Positions 2,979 through 61,006 of a stretch of 64,000 nucleotides of DNA are shown piece by piece. Origin of the DNA: a virus (Duplodnaviria; Heunggongvirae; Uroviricota; Caudoviricetes); the IMG/VR virus record IMGVR_UViG_2724679236_000008; one strand, given 5' to 3'. The position numbers and the translations under genes were made by a program. Under the pieces are notes generated by a model. The model saw nothing but the letters and a program-made list of their open reading frames with translations, did no database searches and was not told the DNA's origin. Every line of letters starts with the position of its first letter. Positions within the stretch are counted from its first letter, which is position 1.

Positions 2979-4540
2979 ATGAAAATGACAAGTATTCAAC
3001 AACGTGCAGAGCTTCATCGTCAAATCTGGCAAATTGCTAACGATGTCAGGGGTTCGGTCGATGGATGGGATTTTAAGCAATACGTTCTGGGCGCACTTTT
3101 CTACCGTTTTATCAGCGAAAATTTTTCCAGCTATATTGAAGCCGGTGATGACAGTATCTGTTATGCGAAACTGGATGACAGCGTAATTACTGATGACATT
3201 AAAGACGATGCCATCAAAACTAAAGGCTACTTCATCTACCCAAGTCAGCTTTTCTGCAACGTAGCTGCGAAAGCAAATACCAATGACAGACTGAATGCAG
3301 ATTTAAACAGTATCTTCGTTGCTATCGAAAGTTCTGCTTACGGTTACCCTTCAGAAGCTGACATCAAAGGTTTGTTTGCTGATTTCGATACCACCAGTAA
3401 CCGCCTGGGTAACACCGTTAAGGATAAAAATGCCCGCCTGGCTGCGGTTCTGAAAGGGGTTGAAGGGTTAAAACTTGGTGACTTCAACGAACATCAGATT
3501 GACCTGTTCGGCGATGCCTATGAGTTCCTGATTTCTAACTATGCGGCGAATGCTGGTAAGTCAGGCGGCGAGTTTTTTACACCGCAGCATGTCTCTAAGC
3601 TGATTGCACAACTGGCTATGCACGGGCAGACCCACGTTAACAAAATCTACGACCCAGCCGCAGGTTCCGGTTCGCTGTTGTTACAGGCGAAAAAGCAGTT
3701 TGATGACCATATCATCGAAGAAGGCTTTTTTGGTCAGGAGATCAACCATACGACCTATAACCTGGCGCGTATGAACATGTTTTTGCACAACATCAACTAC
3801 GACAAGTTTGATATCAAGCTGGGCAATACGCTGACTGAGCCGCACTTCAGAGATGAAAAACCGTTTGATGCCATCGTTTCTAACCCGCCATATTCGGTGA
3901 AATGGATTGGCAGTGATGACCCGACGCTGATTAACGATGAACGTTTTGCCCCTGCTGGCGTTCTGGCCCCAAATCAAAAGCTGACTTCGCCTTTGTACTA
4001 CATGCGCTGAACTATCTTTCTGCCAAAGGTCGTGCTGCGATTGTCTGCTTCCCGGGTATTTTTTACCGTGGCGGCGCAGAGCAGAAAATCCGTCAGTATC
4101 TGGTCGACAATAACTATGTCGAAACCGTGATTTCACTGGCACCGAATCTGTTCTTTGGCACCACTATTGCCGTAAACATTCTGGTGCTGTCTAAACATAA
4201 AACGGATACCAAAGTTCAGTTTATTGATGCCAGCGAGCTGTTTAAAAAAGAAACTAACAACAATACCCTGACCGATGCCCATATCGAACAGATTATGCAG
4301 GTATTTGCCAGCAAGGAAGATGTTGCTCATCTGGCGAAATCTGTTGCGTTTGAGACTGTTGTCGCGAATGACTATAACCTGTCGGTGAGCAGCTATGTGG
4401 AAGCGAAAGATACTCGCGAAATTATCGATATCGCTGAGTTGAATGCAGAGCTGAAAAGCACCGTCGGCAAAATCGACCAGTTGCGCAAAGATATTGATGC
4501 GATTGTGGCTGAAATTGAAGGCTGCGAGGTGCAGAAATGA
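2979..4540 (+). pseudogene. hsdM: type I R-M methyltransferase subunit HsdM, interrupted by a 1-nt frameshift at the CCCCAAA tract (3967-3973)
   Basis: Frame 1 (2979-4010) has N6-adenine MTase motifs including NPPYSVKW, then stops. Frame at -1 continues [63 protein letters not shown] to 4540. Combined length about 520 aa. Confidence 0.85.
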
Positions 4541-5851: not shown

Positions 5852-8800
5852 ATGACTCATCAAACACACACCATTGCTGAATCCAATAACTTTATCGTCC
5901 TTGATAAGTACATCAAAGCTGAGCAAACAAGCGACAGCTACCAGAGCGAATCGGACCTGGAACGTGAACTGATTCAGGACCTGCGGAATCAGGGTTATGA
6001 ATTTATTTCCGTAAAATCACAGTCGGCAATGCTGTCCAATGTTCGGGAACAGCTTCAGAGCCTCAATGGTGTGATGTTTAATGACAGCGAGTGGCGGCGC
6101 TTCACGGAGCAGTATCTGGACAACCCCAGCGATGGTATTCTGGATAAAACCCGTAAAATCCATATCGACTATATCTGCGACTTTATTTTTGACGACGGGC
6201 GACTTGAGAACATCTATTTGATAGATAAAAAGAATCTCATGCGCAATAAGGTGCAGATTATCCAGCAGTTTGAACAGACGGGTTCTCATGCTAACCGTTA
6301 TGACGTCACGATCCTGGTTAATGGTTTACCGCTGGTGCAAATCGAACTAAAAAAACGCGGGGTGGCGATTCGTGAGGCTTTCAACCAGATACATCGTTAC
6401 AGTAAAGAGAGTTTTAACAGCGAAAATTCCCTGTTTAAGTATCTGCAGCTGTTCGTCATTTCCAACGGCACCGATACCCGTTATTTTGCCAACACGACAA
6501 AGCGCGATAAAAACAGTTTTGACTTCACCATGAACTGGGCGAAATCAGACAACACGCTGATTAAAGACCTCAAAGACTTTACCGCCACCTTTTTCCAGAA
6601 ACATACTCTGCTGAATGTTCTGGTGAACTACAGCGTGTTTGACAGTAGTCAGACACTACTGGTGATGCGACCGTACCAGATTGCTGCCACCGAGCGCATT
6701 CTGTGGAAAATTAAGAGTTCCTTTACAGCGAAGAACTGGTCAAAACCGGAAAGCGGTGGGTATATCTGGCACACTACCGGTTCTGGTAAAACCCTCACCA
6801 GCTTTAAAGCCGCGCGTCTGGCAACAGAGCTGGACTTTATTGATAAAGTCTTCTTTGTGGTCGACAGGAAAGACCTCGATTACCAGACCATGAAGGAATA
6901 TCAGCGTTTTTCGCCAGACAGCGTCAACGGCTCGGAAAATACCGCAGGCCTTAAACGAAATCTGGATAAGGACGATAACAAAATTATCGTCACTACTATT
7001 CAGAAACTCAATAACCTGATGAAAGCAGAAAGCGACCTGCCTGTATATAATCAGCAAGTGGTGTTTATATTTGATGAATGCCACCGCAGCCAGTTTGGAG
7101 AAGCGCAGAAAAACCTGAAGAAGAAATTCAAACGCTATTATCAGTTTGGTTTTACCGGCACCCCTATTTTCCCGGAAAACGCCTTAGGCTCAGAAACAAC
7201 CGCCAGCGTATTTGGTCGTGAATTGCATTCGTATGTAATTACCGATGCGATTCGTGACGAAAAAGTGCTCAAATTCAAGGTGGACTACAACGATGTGCGG
7301 CCACAGTTTAAGTCTTTAGAGACAGAAACTGACGAGAAAAAACTAAGTGCGGCTGAAAATCAGCAGGCGTTTCTTCATCCCATGCGTATTCAGGAAATCA
7401 CGCAATATATTCTGAATAATTTCCGCCAGAAAACCCACCGTACCTTCCCTGGCTCAAAAGGTTTTAATGCTATGTTGGCAGTAAGCAGCGTGGATGCTGC
7501 AAAAGCCTATTATGCGACGTTTAAACGGTTACAAGAGGAAGCAGCTAATAAATCGGCTACCTATAAACCGCTGCGTGTTGCGACAATCTTCTCCTTTGCC
7601 GCTAATGAAGAACAAAATGCCATTGGTGAAATTTCCGATGAAACTTTTGATACCAGCGCAATGGACAGCAGTGCTAAAGAGTTTCTGGACGCTGCAATTC
7701 GTGAATATAACAGCCATTTTAAAACTAACTTCAGCACCGACAGTAACGGTTTTCAGAACTACTATCGTGATTTAGCCCAGCGGGTTAAAAATCAGGATAT
7801 CGATCTGCTAATTGTCGTGGGGATGTTTTTAACCGGCTTCGATGCTCCAACATTGAACACGCTATTCGTCGATAAAAACTTGCGTTTTCACGGCCTGATG
7901 CAGGCATTTTCCCGCACCAACCGTATTTATGATGCAACTAAAACCTTCGGTAATATCGTCACTTTCCGGGATCTGGAACGCTCAACTATTGATGCCATAA
8001 CGCTGTTTGGTGACAAAAACACCAAAAATGTGGTGTTAGAAAAGAGTTATACAGAGTATATGGAAGGCTTTACTGATGCTGCTACTGGTGAAGCTAAACG
8101 CGGCTTCATGACAGTAGTTTCAGAACTGGAACAACGGTTCCCTGACCCTACCAGTATTGAAAGTGAAAAAGAGAAGAAAGACTTCGTTAAACTGTTTGGC
8201 GAATACCTGCGTGCCGAGAACATCCTGCAAAACTATGATGAATTTGCCACGCTAAAAGCCCTGCAACGAATCGATCTTAGCGATCCTGTTGCGGTAGAAA
8301 AATTCAAAGCAGAACATTATGTGGATGATGAAAAGTTCGCTGAATTGCAAACAATTCGTCTCCCTGCTGATCGCAAGATTCAGGATTATCGTTCTGCCTA
8401 TAACGATATTCGCGACTGGCAGCGCCGTGAGAAAGAAGCTGAGAAAAAAGAGAAATCAACCACTGACTGGGATGACGTAGTTTTTGAGGTCGATTTGCTG
8501 AAGTCTCAGGAAATAAACCTGGATTATATCCTTGGACTGATTTTCGAACACAACAGACAAAATAAAGGCAAGGGCGAAATGATCGAAGAGGTCAAACGCT
8601 TAATTCGTTCAAGCCTAGGGAACCGTGCTAAAGAGGGCCTGGTGGTCGATTTTATTCAGCAAACGAACCTGGATGATTTACCGGACAAAGCCAGCATCAT
8701 TGACGCATTCTTTACGTTTGCTCAACGCGAACAGCAACGTGAAGCAGAAGCATTGATAAAAGAAGAAAATCTCAATGAAGATGCAGCAAAACGCTATATT

Positions 8801-8968
8801 CGCACGTCTTTAAAACGCGAATATGCCACCGAAAATGGCACAGAATTAAACGAAACATTACCAAAACTTAGTCCGTTGAATCCGCAATATAAAACGAAAA
8901 AACAGGCAGTTTTCCAGAAAATCGTCTCGTTTATTGAGAAGTTTAAAGGCGTAGGCGGAAAAATATAG
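5852..8968 (+). CDS. hsdR: type I restriction endonuclease subunit HsdR, 1038 aa
   Basis: Superfamily-2 helicase motifs ([15 protein letters not shown]) with N-terminal nuclease region; length typical of type IC HsdR. Confidence 0.9.
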
Positions 8969-9047
8969 CCCAATTCGTATTTTTCTTGCGGGTTCTTAAT
9001 TAAACCCGCAAGAGACCGTGGGGTTCCAAATGGCTAATATACTCCCC

Positions 9048-9134
9048 TTACCCATGCGCGACAATGCTGCCAAAAGTGATAGAGAACAGCCAGAAATAGA
9101 TCGCGGCCATAATGATTTTGAATGCCGTGTTCAT
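9048..9134 (-). CDS. 28-aa hydrophobic peptide (MNTAFKIIMAAIYFWLFSITFGSIVAHG); possible small membrane toxin-like gene
   Basis: ATG at 9134-9132 with AGGAG about 8 nt upstream, TAA stop at 9048-9050; single predicted TM helix; below ORF-track size cutoff. Confidence 0.4.
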   Translation of the reverse strand: MNTAFKIIMAAIYFWLFSITFGSIVAHG

Positions 9135-9216
9135 ATTTTCAGCTCCTGTGATTGATTGGATACATGCCGCGCCTTGCGGCATGTTTTTATTTTCACTTTC
9201 TCTGTTTTGAAAATCA

Positions 9217-9233
9217 AGATTTATTAGAGCAAT
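9217..9233. promoter_or_regulatory. C1-operator-like 17-mer (16/17)
   Basis: agatttattagagcaat overlapping the stop codon of the HAD gene, upstream of the 28-aa peptide ORF. Confidence 0.5.
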
Positions 9234-9739
9234 TATTGTTGATGGAGAAGCGCGTTTTCATACTCCCTGACCATTAACGTAAGTACGCCGTGACTCCTGA
9301 AAACACGCGCCACTTCAATCTTATCTTCCAGCGCGAACGCAATTTTACTTAAACCAATTTTCTTCAGGAGATCAATCTTTGCTGGACCGTCATTTCTGTC
9401 ATCGGTGGCAGGACGCATAGATAGCAAAGGCTCAGCCCCATTTGTTACGTGCTTACGCAACCAGGCTCGTGTTTTATCCCTGGCTATCTCACAGCGCCCG
9501 GTTACAAACCAGAGGGTGTAAATGCCGGACAACTGGCGCACCATATCAATAACTGGAGTGATGGGAGCATCAGTGTCACAGGCAAGGTTAAACTCGTTCC
9601 AGTGCTCTGTTAATGCACCTTTGCCAGGTGGTGGAAGTAAATGCAGCCTGTCTTCCGTTGCCTCTGATATCGTCCCATCAATATCTACTATGACGATGTA
9701 CGGACGTTCCTGGTGTGCGTGTTTATTGAAAATACTCAA
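9233..9739 (-). CDS. HAD-superfamily phosphatase (polynucleotide 3'-phosphatase / nucleotidase-like), 168 aa
   Basis: Motif I IVIVDIDGTI near N-terminus; apparent TTG start; small HAD fold. Confidence 0.65.
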   Translation of the reverse strand: MSIFNKHAHQERPYIVIVDIDGTISEATEDRLHLLPPPGKGALTEHWNEFNLACDTDAPITPVIDMVRQLSGIYTLWFVTGRCEIARDKTRAWLRKHVTNGAEPLLSMRPATDDRNDGPAKIDLLKKIGLSKIAFALEDKIEVARVFRSHGVLTLMVREYENALLHQQ

Positions 9740-24570: not shown

Positions 24571-24598
24571 ATTACACTAATAAATTTATTAGAGCAAT
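24571..24598. promoter_or_regulatory. two overlapping C1-operator 17-mers in opposite orientation (15/17 and 17/17)
   Basis: attacactaataaattt (24571-24587) and aaatttattagagcaat (24582-24598), overlapping the methyltransferase stop codon; likely promoter for leftward tRNA-tci-ban transcription. Confidence 0.6.
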
Positions 24599-27755: not shown

Positions 27756-28104
27756 GTTGTAACCCTTGAATATCAACCACAGAAAGCTCGTCTTTGTAGA
27801 AAAAGGCCAGGTTGTGGCACCCCCTCGTTTGAGCGTATGAGCTGGGACCAATTTCGTTCTTCCAGACAAATGGCTTCAAATCCGTACGGCGAAGCATAAA
27901 AACGCGATTTGTTCCGCTCTGATTCCCAATGAGGCAAAAGCCTTCTTTCACCTTGATAGCCTGCAAGTTGTCGAGTTCACCGCTGGTTACACGGCTATCG
28001 AACTCCTTGCGGCTTATTAGCTCCATCTGCATCTGACGACTCCAAACAAATGCCCATTGAAGGGCGATGGCTGAATGGTACCGAAAACACTGCATAAAAA
28101 ACAA
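27748..28104 (-). CDS. hypothetical protein, up to 118 aa
   Basis: ORF immediately upstream of the RdgC-like gene; start uncertain. Confidence 0.4.
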
Positions 28105-28120
28105 TATTTATTAGAGCAAT
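28104..28120. promoter_or_regulatory. C1-operator-like 17-mer (16/17) in divergent intergenic region
   Basis: atatttattagagcaat; a weaker half-site at 28176-28190. Confidence 0.5.
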
Positions 28121-43259: not shown

Positions 43260-43276
43260 AAATTTATTAGAGCAAA
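43260..43276. promoter_or_regulatory. C1-operator 17-mer (16/17) upstream of kilA-repL (Op53-like)
   Basis: aaatttattagagcaaa. Confidence 0.6.
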
Positions 43277-59101: not shown

Positions 59102-61006
59102 TTAGTAACCTATAGCTGTCCAGTACATATTGCCGTTACCCTCACTGTTAAATTTTGTTCCGGTTCTGGATAGTGAGTTAACAGCAATGCTGTAGTCAAA
59201 ACGACCATGCGCGTTAGTGATTGTTATGCTTGTACAGGCAGAGGGAAAAGCTATTGGAAATGTTAACCCTGCTCCAGCATTAGAAATATATCCCCACTGC
59301 GTAATAATTCCTGTAGAGACATCTTTATGCCAGCCATTCGCCGCTTTGAACGCGGTATTTTTAGCCTGATAACGGGAGTCAAAATTACCGTAATCTGACG
59401 GGTTAACACGCCCACTAATATTCAGTAGTTTATTACTTTGAATACTTCCACTCGTAAAGCGGAAAACATGGGCATTGTTAGCATAAACATCAAGAACACC
59501 ATCGCCATTTTGCTTTAAACCAGTATCACCATCACCCAGAACAATGGAGTTACCTCCTAAAGCGTTTGCCGTTCTTATACCAAGTGCGCCGTTCAACTGG
59601 CCGCCAGATAACGGCAATGCCCCAACTTCAGCGGCAGTAGGTCTAATATGCGAACTGTAAATTACATAAACCGTTCCATCAGTCAGGCCTGTCGGTTTAT
59701 TCGCTGTATAAGTTGGTGATGTATGAATTTGTACAGTGGCATCCTTTGTATAATCCCACTGGATATTAACACCCGTGGCGTAATTACCTATTTCTACATA
59801 AATGTCATAGGTATCACCGGATGTATTCACCCATGCAAAATTAGTAAATCCTGATGATGTCCGCCGCCATAATGCACCAGTGATGCCTTTAGGGTTTCCA
59901 TTGCCAGCACGTAAAACAAGTTCAGATATACCCGCCTGCTGCGGGGAACCGACATTATATCCAGCACCACCAATCAGGCTTACATAAACCACGGAACTGG
60001 CCTGTGGCATAGTTACAGTCGCCAGTTTGAACCATCCTGCACCGCCATTAAAGGATATGGTTGTTGAATTTGTTGTCCCGATGTTGCGCAGGAATAATTT
60101 TTTATCAGGAATATCTGCACCGTTCTGGTTTTTCTGCAATGCTCCAGCAGCTAACTCTACTGTTTGTTCGAGATTTAAATCTTCCGCCGTTAGTTCAATG
60201 TCTTCAGAACCATCAAACGAGACGCCGTTGATAGTACATGCTGTCTGCAACTTGGTCGCTGTCGCTGCATTACCGGTAGTGTCTTGATTACCTTTTGTAT
60301 TCACACCAGGCAAATCTATATCGGCTGAACCATCAAAGGATACACCACCTATGTTTATTGAACTTGCTAATTTCGTTGCTGTTGCTGCATTTCCTGAAAG
60401 GCTTGAAACAAACTGATGTGAGCAGTAATAACCACGTCCATTTTTAAAATCCAGAATGGTTTGAGTATTTGTACTTTCTGCTACTGGATCTGTGGCCCCC
60501 CACTTATAGGTGGCTTGACCAACGGTATAGTCAGTAGTTGGAACAATTACGTTCAAGCCCTCCTCAGCAAATATCTTGATAGGAAATGCTCTGGCTTCAA
60601 CGTAAAATACACTACACAAATCGTCATCTTTCACACTTGAAATAATCGAGTGTATAGCTCGCTCAGCAGTAGAATATATTGAGAAAAAACCAGCCGCATA
60701 TGAACCGCGATCAGACCAACCGCCAGGCATAACAAACCCATTAAATTCACAATTATTCATGGCGTATCCGCCAGCTGAGGAATAAGTAGTTATCACAACT
60801 CGTGAGGCTAATTCATCGGTACTGCCTCCAGATCGGCGAAAGACTATAGGATACCACTTACCGCTTACTGCATTTGCAGGCGCTGAAAAAGTGTATTTTC
60901 GCATCCCTTTTTTATTGTCTATTTCGCTTTTGCTGTAAACGTCCAGATCTTTAGGAGTCNNNNNNNNNNAAGTCTGGCGTGCACTCCATGTGTTAGCCGT
61001 GCTCAA
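59102..61006 (-). CDS. alternative tail-fibre variable segment Sv' (no independent start; joined to S constant part after inversion); contains assembly gap
   Basis: N-terminal [11 protein letters not shown] matches S residues at 56600-56640; internal [18 protein letters not shown]...[24 protein letters not shown] block matches S at 57040-57240; 10 N at 60960-60969. Confidence 0.6.
60960..60969. other. assembly gap (10 N) inside the inverted repeat
   Basis: Run of n characters. Confidence 1.

Follow-up and report, generated by a model that had tools for sequence, protein, structure and literature searches.

The window analysed here is a 64,000-nt stretch of viral DNA (Caudoviricetes; IMG/VR record IMGVR_UViG_2724679236_000008), and its feature under study is a 28-codon open reading frame (ORF) on the minus strand (positions 9048-9134), hereafter called the mini-gene. 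Most probably, the mini-gene is a genuine protein-coding gene, the promoter-proximal cistron of an early operon (PpmgT/Op88) repressed by C1, and not part of a type I toxin-antitoxin (TA) system. The ORF is under coding constraint, it stands behind a conserved regulatory module, and the hairpin within this module shows covariation. It should be silent in the lysogen and expressed at once on derepression, and its product would be expected to insert into the inner membrane. The segment is identical (100%) to the corresponding part of the Escherichia albertii IncY plasmid pEA4_97 and shares 97% identity with phages P1 and P7, which identifies the window as a phage-plasmid of P1 type. The ORF of P1 has pap on one side and pmgT on the other and follows the operator OpmgT (formerly Op88); in the P1 GenBank record, this monovalent C1 operator and two predicted promoters (P1pmgT and P2pmgT) stand just 5' of the ORF, with no coding sequence (CDS) called there.

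The ORF runs from ATG to TAA exactly as translated in an earlier, sequence-only reading of this DNA. It encodes MNTAFKIIMAAIYFWLFSITFGSIVAHG, a single transmembrane (TM) helix with a grand average of hydropathy of 1.29, reaching 2.08 in the best 19-residue window; the allele of the window has S23, and the majority of P1-group sequences have G23. The strong AGGAG ribosome-binding site named in that reading is also present (9143-9147), 8 nt ahead of the ATG. When the 264-nt intergenic region was shuffled 5000 times with its dinucleotide composition preserved, ORFs of ≥25 aa that begin with ATG and have a 5-mer Shine-Dalgarno (SD) sequence at the right distance arose 56 times, and those that in addition resembled a membrane helix only twice. 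The 28-codon ORF is not a chance feature. No paralogues of the mini-gene were found within the window. Two antisense ORFs on the plus strand (9018-9155 and 9112-9210) were considered and rejected, both lacking an SD sequence and the first being hydrophilic. The ORF had been described as unannotated, which is true of pEA4_97 and the P1 reference, but not of SJ46, phi456 and some NCBI records, where a longer or an identical version is called: a 44-aa "membrane protein" in SJ46, Orf75 in phi456 and a 28-aa hypothetical protein in an E. coli O111 genome.

Selection was assessed in 88 related P1-group loci, mostly from IMG/VR, of which 86 had enough upstream sequence and yielded 71 distinct haplotypes. 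The ratio of non-synonymous to synonymous nucleotide diversity (πN/πS) across these haplotypes is 0.10 in the 28-codon frame, compared with 0.12 for pap in the same alignment and with 3.3 and 2.4 in the +1 and +2 frames, respectively. Codons 16-28 taken separately give 0.13. The 16 extra codons of the 44-aa reading (SJ46 and phi456) have a ratio of 2.0, which supports the 28-aa start; these codons also overlap the 5' hairpin and have no SD sequence ahead of them, and the longer reading was rejected.

Diverged relatives provided the second line of evidence. The P1-group peptide compared with 5.8 billion proteins retrieved only near-identical sequences, and an exhaustive phmmer search with the 44-aa form against 1.84 billion representatives returned P1-group sequences only. 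Relatives were located instead by synteny, in Cronobacter, Salmonella and several metagenomic lineages. In Cronobacter phage JK004, whose Pap protein is 72% identical to that of the window, the same place is occupied by a C1 operator, a promoter (TTGTTT-17-AATAAT), a hairpin (GGCCGC/GCGGCC) and CCAATCAATCACCGGAGCC, followed by the ATG of a 53-aa ORF (MHLIFKLAITAFYAWMLTVVITSFKPDANMKASRYLGNLSASYDCDQQGDDSL), whose stop codon overlaps the next start (ATGA). In Salmonella P1-like plasmids, the same operator, promoter, hairpin and linker precede a version of 46 aa (MHTVFKLAMAAFYIWIFTIVFTGIAKATPVNASEVGVRTIYCDLGE). A profile search added more 46-aa and 53-aa variants, with the 46-aa form found on 389 contigs; the longest contigs carrying these variants are mostly of ~90 kb, which is the size of a phage-plasmid. 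Seven further loci were fetched, and all of them, like every other locus inspected for gene order, show the synteny pmgS-(pap)-ORF, with a pmgS product of 420 aa. The mini-gene of the window has the same setting: it lies downstream of pmgS(-pap) and behind a C1 operator, with a -10 element ~54-60 nt before its ATG and the stem-loop, CCAATCA and GGAG elements in between.

In a seven-sequence alignment, M1, K6, A11 and W15 are invariant, residues also shared by the 46-53-aa homologues, and the hydrophobicity of residues 5-24 is kept at merely 47-61% nucleotide identity to P1. The peptide of the window fits the N-terminal TM core M-x3-[FILS]-K-[IL]-x3-A-[IF]-[YF]-x-W. Among the diverged lineages, the same kind of ratio of non-synonymous to synonymous diversity (here written pN/pS) for the full 53-aa group is 0.38 in frame, 0.91 in frame +1 and 1.10 in frame +2. 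The corresponding values are 0.42, 0.62 and 1.61 for the TM part (codons 1-24), and 0.34, 1.11 and 1.03 for the tail (codons 25-52). Judged by these alignments, the family is protein-coding and conserved across the P1 supercluster (Escherichia, Salmonella and Cronobacter). The hydrophilic C-terminal tail of the relatives (22-29 aa, with a Y-(D)-C-D motif) is absent from the P1-group allele, which stops four residues past the helix and is a truncated version, little more than a TM helix, ending precisely at the edge of a variable region. We also considered an origin as the residual signal peptide of a secreted protein that was otherwise lost, and rejected this because the relatives have merely the 22-29-aa tail.

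Three observations on gene calls and operon structure in these relatives are recorded here. The JK004 homologue is annotated as gene_94 (positions 3587-3748 of locus L094) from an internal start (38 aa) and not from the SD-preceded ATG (53 aa), and the 46-aa Salmonella ORF (positions 2501-2641 in both L095 and L096) has no CDS in the gene table of either plasmid. The second gene of the operon in non-P1 lineages (L094, 3745-4059; L096, 2646-2963; also L097-L102) encodes a winged-helix-like protein of ~104 aa, its start overlapping or closely following the stop of the mini-gene. This protein has weak matches to HTH_24, MarR and the PHROG "Ren-like exclusion protein", and no detectable similarity to PmgU or PmgV of P1 (PmgT was not part of the comparison).

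The regulatory module upstream of the mini-gene begins with the C1 operator Op88/OpmgT (ATTGCTCTAATAAATCT; 9217-9233, minus strand), given in the P1 record as monovalent and C1-controlled. It is the C1-operator-like 17-mer of the sequence-only reading and has one mismatch to the consensus. The relatives in Cronobacter and Salmonella have it at this position too. The window contains 10 C1-operator-like sites, compared with 0.28 expected by chance; the nine others lie at 928-944, 11309-11374, 14982-14998, 24571-24598 (an overlapping inverted pair), 28104-28120, 43260-43276 and 44919-44935. The -35 element of the predicted sigma-70 promoter P1pmgT (9189-9217, minus strand) abuts the operator. This promoter is composed of TTGATT (9212-9217), a 17-nt spacer and GAAAAT (9189-9194); it has the best minus-strand score in the region (background 0.55 sites per kb) and agrees with the prediction in the P1 record. 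Most of the diverged loci have a comparable promoter whose -10 element ends 54-60 nt before the ATG, and for this reason transcription is predicted to start at the foot of the hairpin (~9182-9184 in the window) in every lineage. In the second promoter of the P1 record, P2pmgT, the -10 element (window position 9209) reads CAAAAC in the window and pEA4_97, in place of TAAAAC in P1 and most relatives, a change that would weaken it. The stretch 9208-9267, comprising the 3' end of pap, Op88 and the promoter spacer, is the most polymorphic of the 800 nt compared: the operator-promoter part has 15-21 variable columns per 30 nt versus 5-8 in pap, and the last five Pap residues differ in many plasmids.

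Immediately downstream of the predicted start, the mRNA would fold into a GC-rich 5'-terminal stem-loop (ACAUGCCGC-AAGGC-GCGGCAUGU; 9162-9184, minus strand). This is the 5' member (9-10 bp) of the flanking hairpins already noted from the sequence, the 3' one (12 bp) being located at ~8984-9013. The stem is invariant in the 88 P1-group loci. In the diverged relatives a hairpin occurs at the equivalent position with a different sequence, its position and pairing being retained. When the eight non-P1 sequences were aligned, 6 of the 11 pairs were found to have changed on both sides, and 79.5% of the cells were paired. The covariation score of 0.41 was not reached in any of 500 shuffled alignments (which gave 0.21), and sliding the pairing partner lowered it to 0.02-0.17. 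A 5'-terminal stem-loop is a classic mRNA stabiliser, and by analogy this one probably stabilises the transcript of the mini-gene. The stems of the non-P1 lineages differ, and their hairpins share a 9-nt loop motif (ACGCTATCA, ATGCTTTCA and GCACTACCA; loci L094-L102, alignment columns 27-35) that could be a candidate binding site; the P1-group loop is different and has 5 nt. Following the hairpin is a single-stranded linker (AUCCAAUCAAUCAC) leading to the SD sequence AGGAG (together 9143-9161, minus strand). The linker is conserved across lineages, and its core CCAATCA..GGAGC is invariant or nearly so in all of them.

Taken together, these elements suggest the following order of events. In the lysogen, C1 bound to the operator abutting the -35 element would keep the mini-gene off. 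Once C1 is inactivated, by induction or in a fresh infection, transcription would begin at the foot of the stem-loop, which probably stabilises the mRNA, and the CA-rich linker and strong SD sequence would lead to translation of a single-pass inner-membrane protein. Within the peptide, K6 and the small-residue motif G22-x-x-x-A26 suggest helix-helix interaction. The mini-gene would probably provide an accessory function early in the lytic cycle, directed at the host membrane through helix-helix contacts, from the head of an operon of accessory genes.

Several points weigh against reading the mini-gene as the first coding cistron of an early operon. Transcription, translation and the membrane location of the product are predictions, and no protein family, structure or partner points to a function. 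Pfam, NCBIfam, PHROGs and PADLOC gave nothing above noise for the 28-, 44-, 46- and 53-aa forms; the best family match was phrog_27041, with E = 0.09 for the window peptide and E = 0.04-0.05 for the longer forms. The literature searched for pmgT, Op88 and the peptide string contains no mention of the ORF, and the mini-gene region likewise goes unmentioned in the papers on P1vir RNA-seq and CRISPRi-ART. The selection signal within the P1 group comes from few sites (7 synonymous and 8 non-synonymous variants, one of them dominant), for which reason a permutation test with randomised variant positions (synonymous share of heterozygosity 0.74 against a null of 0.29, P = 0.018) is only suggestive when taken alone. 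Some P1-group variants have a helix with Asp or Gln; in others the stop is lost and a C-terminal extension gained. Such variants suggest loose constraint on the truncated allele. Finally, hardly any variation, synonymous sites included, is seen in the stretch from the hairpin through the linker and SD sequence to codon 15 (9090-9177): it has 1-3 variable columns per 30 nt and a πS of 0 versus 0.148 in pap, whereas codons 16-28 vary. The 5' half of the gene is therefore under an additional constraint at the RNA or DNA level. Codons 10-16 are predicted to form a weak helix, rich in A-U pairs, that partly occupies the SD sequence and the AUG, and this pairing may explain the conservation of synonymous sites in the P1 group. 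A hok-like long-range lock between the 5' and 3' ends of the mRNA was rejected: it is present in the minimum-free-energy fold, but the z-score of the 145-nt RNA is only -0.76, and common polymorphisms at codons 24 and 26 break the pairing.

The invariant 5' half is also what would be expected if the P1-group frame were a truncated relic, translated only as a leader. The conserved object would then be an RNA module of stem-loop, linker and translation-initiation region, and translation as such would serve ribosome loading, protection of the 5' end or coupling to the next gene. The gene order of P1 is in keeping with this idea: the TAA of the ORF is followed by GGGGGATGC and then by the pmgT ATG, leaving a gap of 10 nt, with the pmgT SD sequence directly after the stop. 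A stop overlapping the next start or lying ~10 nt from it, as suits translational coupling, is thus found in P1 and, as the ATGA overlap, in JK004. The missing tail and the circulating stop-loss and Asp-in-helix variants fit the same idea. In the window there is no such arrangement, as no minus-strand cistron follows to which translation could be coupled, yet the ORF is intact. A mere leader also does not account for in-frame purifying selection in codons 16-28 and, across lineages, in both the TM part and the tail, nor for the retention of K6, A11, W15 and hydrophobicity in nucleotide sequences as diverged as those compared above. We therefore regard a function limited to leader translation as the main alternative, though an unlikely one, and favour a protein product.

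The sequence-only reading had assigned the peptide to the type I toxin class (TisB, DinQ and ShoB), and the corresponding TA locus would consist of a membrane-depolarising toxin checked by a plus-strand antisense RNA ending at a terminator at 9162-9194. Size and hydrophobicity are indeed those of TisB, Ibs and ShoB-like toxins, and the peptide is well below the 60 aa taken as the limit for small toxins. The partial pairing of the SD sequence and AUG described above would also suit such a locus, as would the position, opposite the 5' untranslated region (UTR), of a strong intrinsic terminator, formed when the 9162-9184 hairpin and the adjacent T-run (9185-9194, TTTTTATTTT) are read on the plus strand. 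Of the antisense RNA signals proposed for the opposite strand, this terminator was the part that could be found; no plus-strand promoter rises above background in the segment shared with P1 (9044-9165). There, the best plus-strand candidates occur at background frequency (16-31 sites per kb), and consensus promoter scans of this segment gave none in either the window or P1. The best plus-strand candidate, GAGACC-17-TAATAT, is weak and lies within hsd-specific DNA, and no antisense promoter is conserved across the eight lineages.

Database searches likewise gave no support for a TA locus. Rfam antitoxin RNA families (Sok, Sib, Rdl, IstR, OhsC, SymR etc.) had no match at E ≤ 10 in the window or at E ≤ 0.1 in nine related loci, and Pfam and NCBIfam toxin families (Hok/Gef, Ldr, TisB, Ibs, ShoB, Fst etc.) had none at E ≤ 10. 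The one Rfam match under the ORF region, to GcvB on the plus strand, scored 20 bits, below the threshold of 42; it probably reflects the terminator and was rejected. The A-run before the hairpin (the T-run of the plus strand) occurs in the P1 group only; in all diverged lineages the hairpin lacks a T-run on both strands. This leaves the antisense terminator confined to the P1 group, whereas the pairing of the sense stem-loop is conserved. Moreover, the promoter on the toxin side would be repressor-gated and not constitutive. The mini-gene thus resembles type I toxins (TisB, DinQ, ShoB, Ibs, Ldr and Hok) in its short, single hydrophobic helix, structured 5' UTR and partly occluded SD sequence, but differs from them in having a repressor-gated promoter, no family match and no antisense or divergent small RNA gene that could be found. 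The assignment to this class was not upheld, and we consider a type I TA locus very improbable. The sequence-only reading was right about the peptide gene and its signals, and the other role it proposed, that of a small regulator, may still apply, as may a membrane-active protein.

The downstream end of the mini-gene coincides with a recombination junction (9044-9050), the left edge of "variable region 8" of P1. The region pmgT-humD is one of eight highly variable regions recognised in a comparison of P1-like phage-plasmids (PMC9603915). Homology between the window and P1 ends at 9044, four bases past the stop codon, and at least eight unrelated downstream DNAs are joined at this same nucleotide, directly after CATGGGTA. 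These comprise pmgT, the hsd cassette, a gene cluster of the Ead/Ea22-DUF4752-DUF551 type, the 3' end of a DUF551 gene, the sequence of locus L042 and an IS1 end, and three further ones are known solely from read-through proteins. All of the variable-cargo junctions keep the 28 codons, and several of them lose the stop (TAA to TAT or TAC, giving Tyr) and add 9-37 residues. The precision of the junction suggests a site-preferring mechanism, and by comparison of these junctions the mini-gene is the constant left landmark of a cargo-exchange site.

The cargo of the window is an hsdMSR cassette of type IC (EcoR124 family) in convergent orientation, which stands in place of pmgT through humD and therefore leaves the mini-gene monocistronic. 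The mini-gene is located, as previously stated, between hsdR (5852-8968, plus strand; identified from the ORF list and annotation) and the HAD phosphatase gene on its upstream side (9233-9739, minus strand). The latter is named pap in the P1 record and encodes a HAD/PNKP-type 3'-phosphatase (Pfam PF25109, E = 3e-11). The hsd cassette ends in the 12-bp hairpin mentioned above (8984-9013), predicted by folding 16 nt after the hsdR stop. This hairpin is found in all hsd-type loci and IncF plasmids; it has no T-run on either strand and was not called by the terminator scan. A run of 10 N is present elsewhere in the window sequence (60960-60969).

A second occurrence of the segment was observed in IncF plasmids (pIP1206, positions 2477-2585 of locus L005, and Klebsiella pneumoniae p1FK563, locus L006), which carry the same type IC hsdR and 3' hairpin, and in which the mini-ORF is cut at codon 3/4 by an IS1 end. 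This agrees with the P1 record, in which a note places the segment downstream of hsdR in R124/3 and EcoDXXI as well. From the hsdR and the mini-ORF remnant of these plasmids, the R124-type hsd cassette appears to have passed through a P1-like element. Such linkage, and the position of the ORF between the hsdR stop and the only plus-strand terminator, might be taken to mean that the ORF is a functionless, fortuitous frame in the region of the 3' UTR and terminator of the hsd cassette. However, hsd-free elements of P1 type, including P1 itself, also have the ORF together with its promoter and operator, and the IncF copy is a remnant interrupted by IS1. The shuffles, the selection signal and the diverged homologues also contradict this explanation. 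Given the homologues in hsd-free lineages, it is essentially refuted, and we find it scarcely credible.

The convergent arrangement nevertheless has consequences at the RNA level. The scan found no plus-strand terminator between 8968 and 9162, so the hsdR transcript most plausibly ends at the terminator at 9162-9194, and its 3' UTR would then be fully antisense to the mini-gene, a configuration that would also suit a TA locus. Conversely, as there is no minus-strand terminator after the mini-gene, PpmgT transcripts would run antisense into hsdR. These transcripts enter into a further, rather improbable possibility, namely that the peptide is a membrane-active effector fired first on loss of C1, either toxin-like or inhibiting a host membrane protein or defence, and that in hsd-carrying elements the locus also acts as a convergent switch with hsdR. 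In the lysogen, the hsdR 3' UTR would then extend antisense across the mini-gene to the terminator; on induction, unterminated PpmgT transcripts would run antisense into hsdR and lead to less restriction during phage replication.

As the leading cistron of an early operon, the mini-gene may be compared with three known types of element. The first are the other C1-controlled early operons of P1, which share the 17-bp asymmetric C1 operator abutting a sigma-70 -35 element and are off in the lysogen and on at derepression; what differs is the first cistron, which encodes a 28-aa membrane peptide and follows a covarying 5' stem-loop; the P1 record describes neither. The second are small regulatory inner-membrane proteins. 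MgrB, MgtS, MgtR, AcrZ, PmrR and SgrT are single-pass helices of 30-50 aa that bind larger membrane proteins. The P1 peptide resembles them in its small-xxx-small motif (G22...A26) and interface-type aromatic residues, but it has no homology to them and no known partner, is phage-encoded and is tied to the lytic switch. The third is ORF-11, a short leader ORF at the entry of the cassette array (attI) of class 1 integrons. In both cases a conserved promoter, 5' UTR and short ORF stand directly before interchangeable cargo, with the stop near the next start in P1 and JK004. In contrast to ORF-11, purifying selection acts on the amino acids encoded by the mini-gene, which form a TM helix, and neither a site-specific recombinase nor an att site was identified. 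As far as can be told, the mini-gene is an uncharacterised addition to the small membrane proteins of phages and no new kind of system.

Although P1 is one of the oldest phages in use as a model and phage-plasmids related to it are common, this gene was missed in the P1 reference. A 401-nt query around the segment, which also spans the ends of hsdR and pap, matches 895 of 5426 complete E. coli genomes, i.e., about one in six, and the peptide itself has matches in 873 plasmid records. The annotations to be corrected are the 44-aa calls, the 38-aa call and the records with no call. For the biology of P1-type elements, the mini-gene represents a new, testable gene in the lysis-lysogeny programme, as well as a landmark for mapping the exchange of defence and accessory cargo, in this case a type I restriction system.

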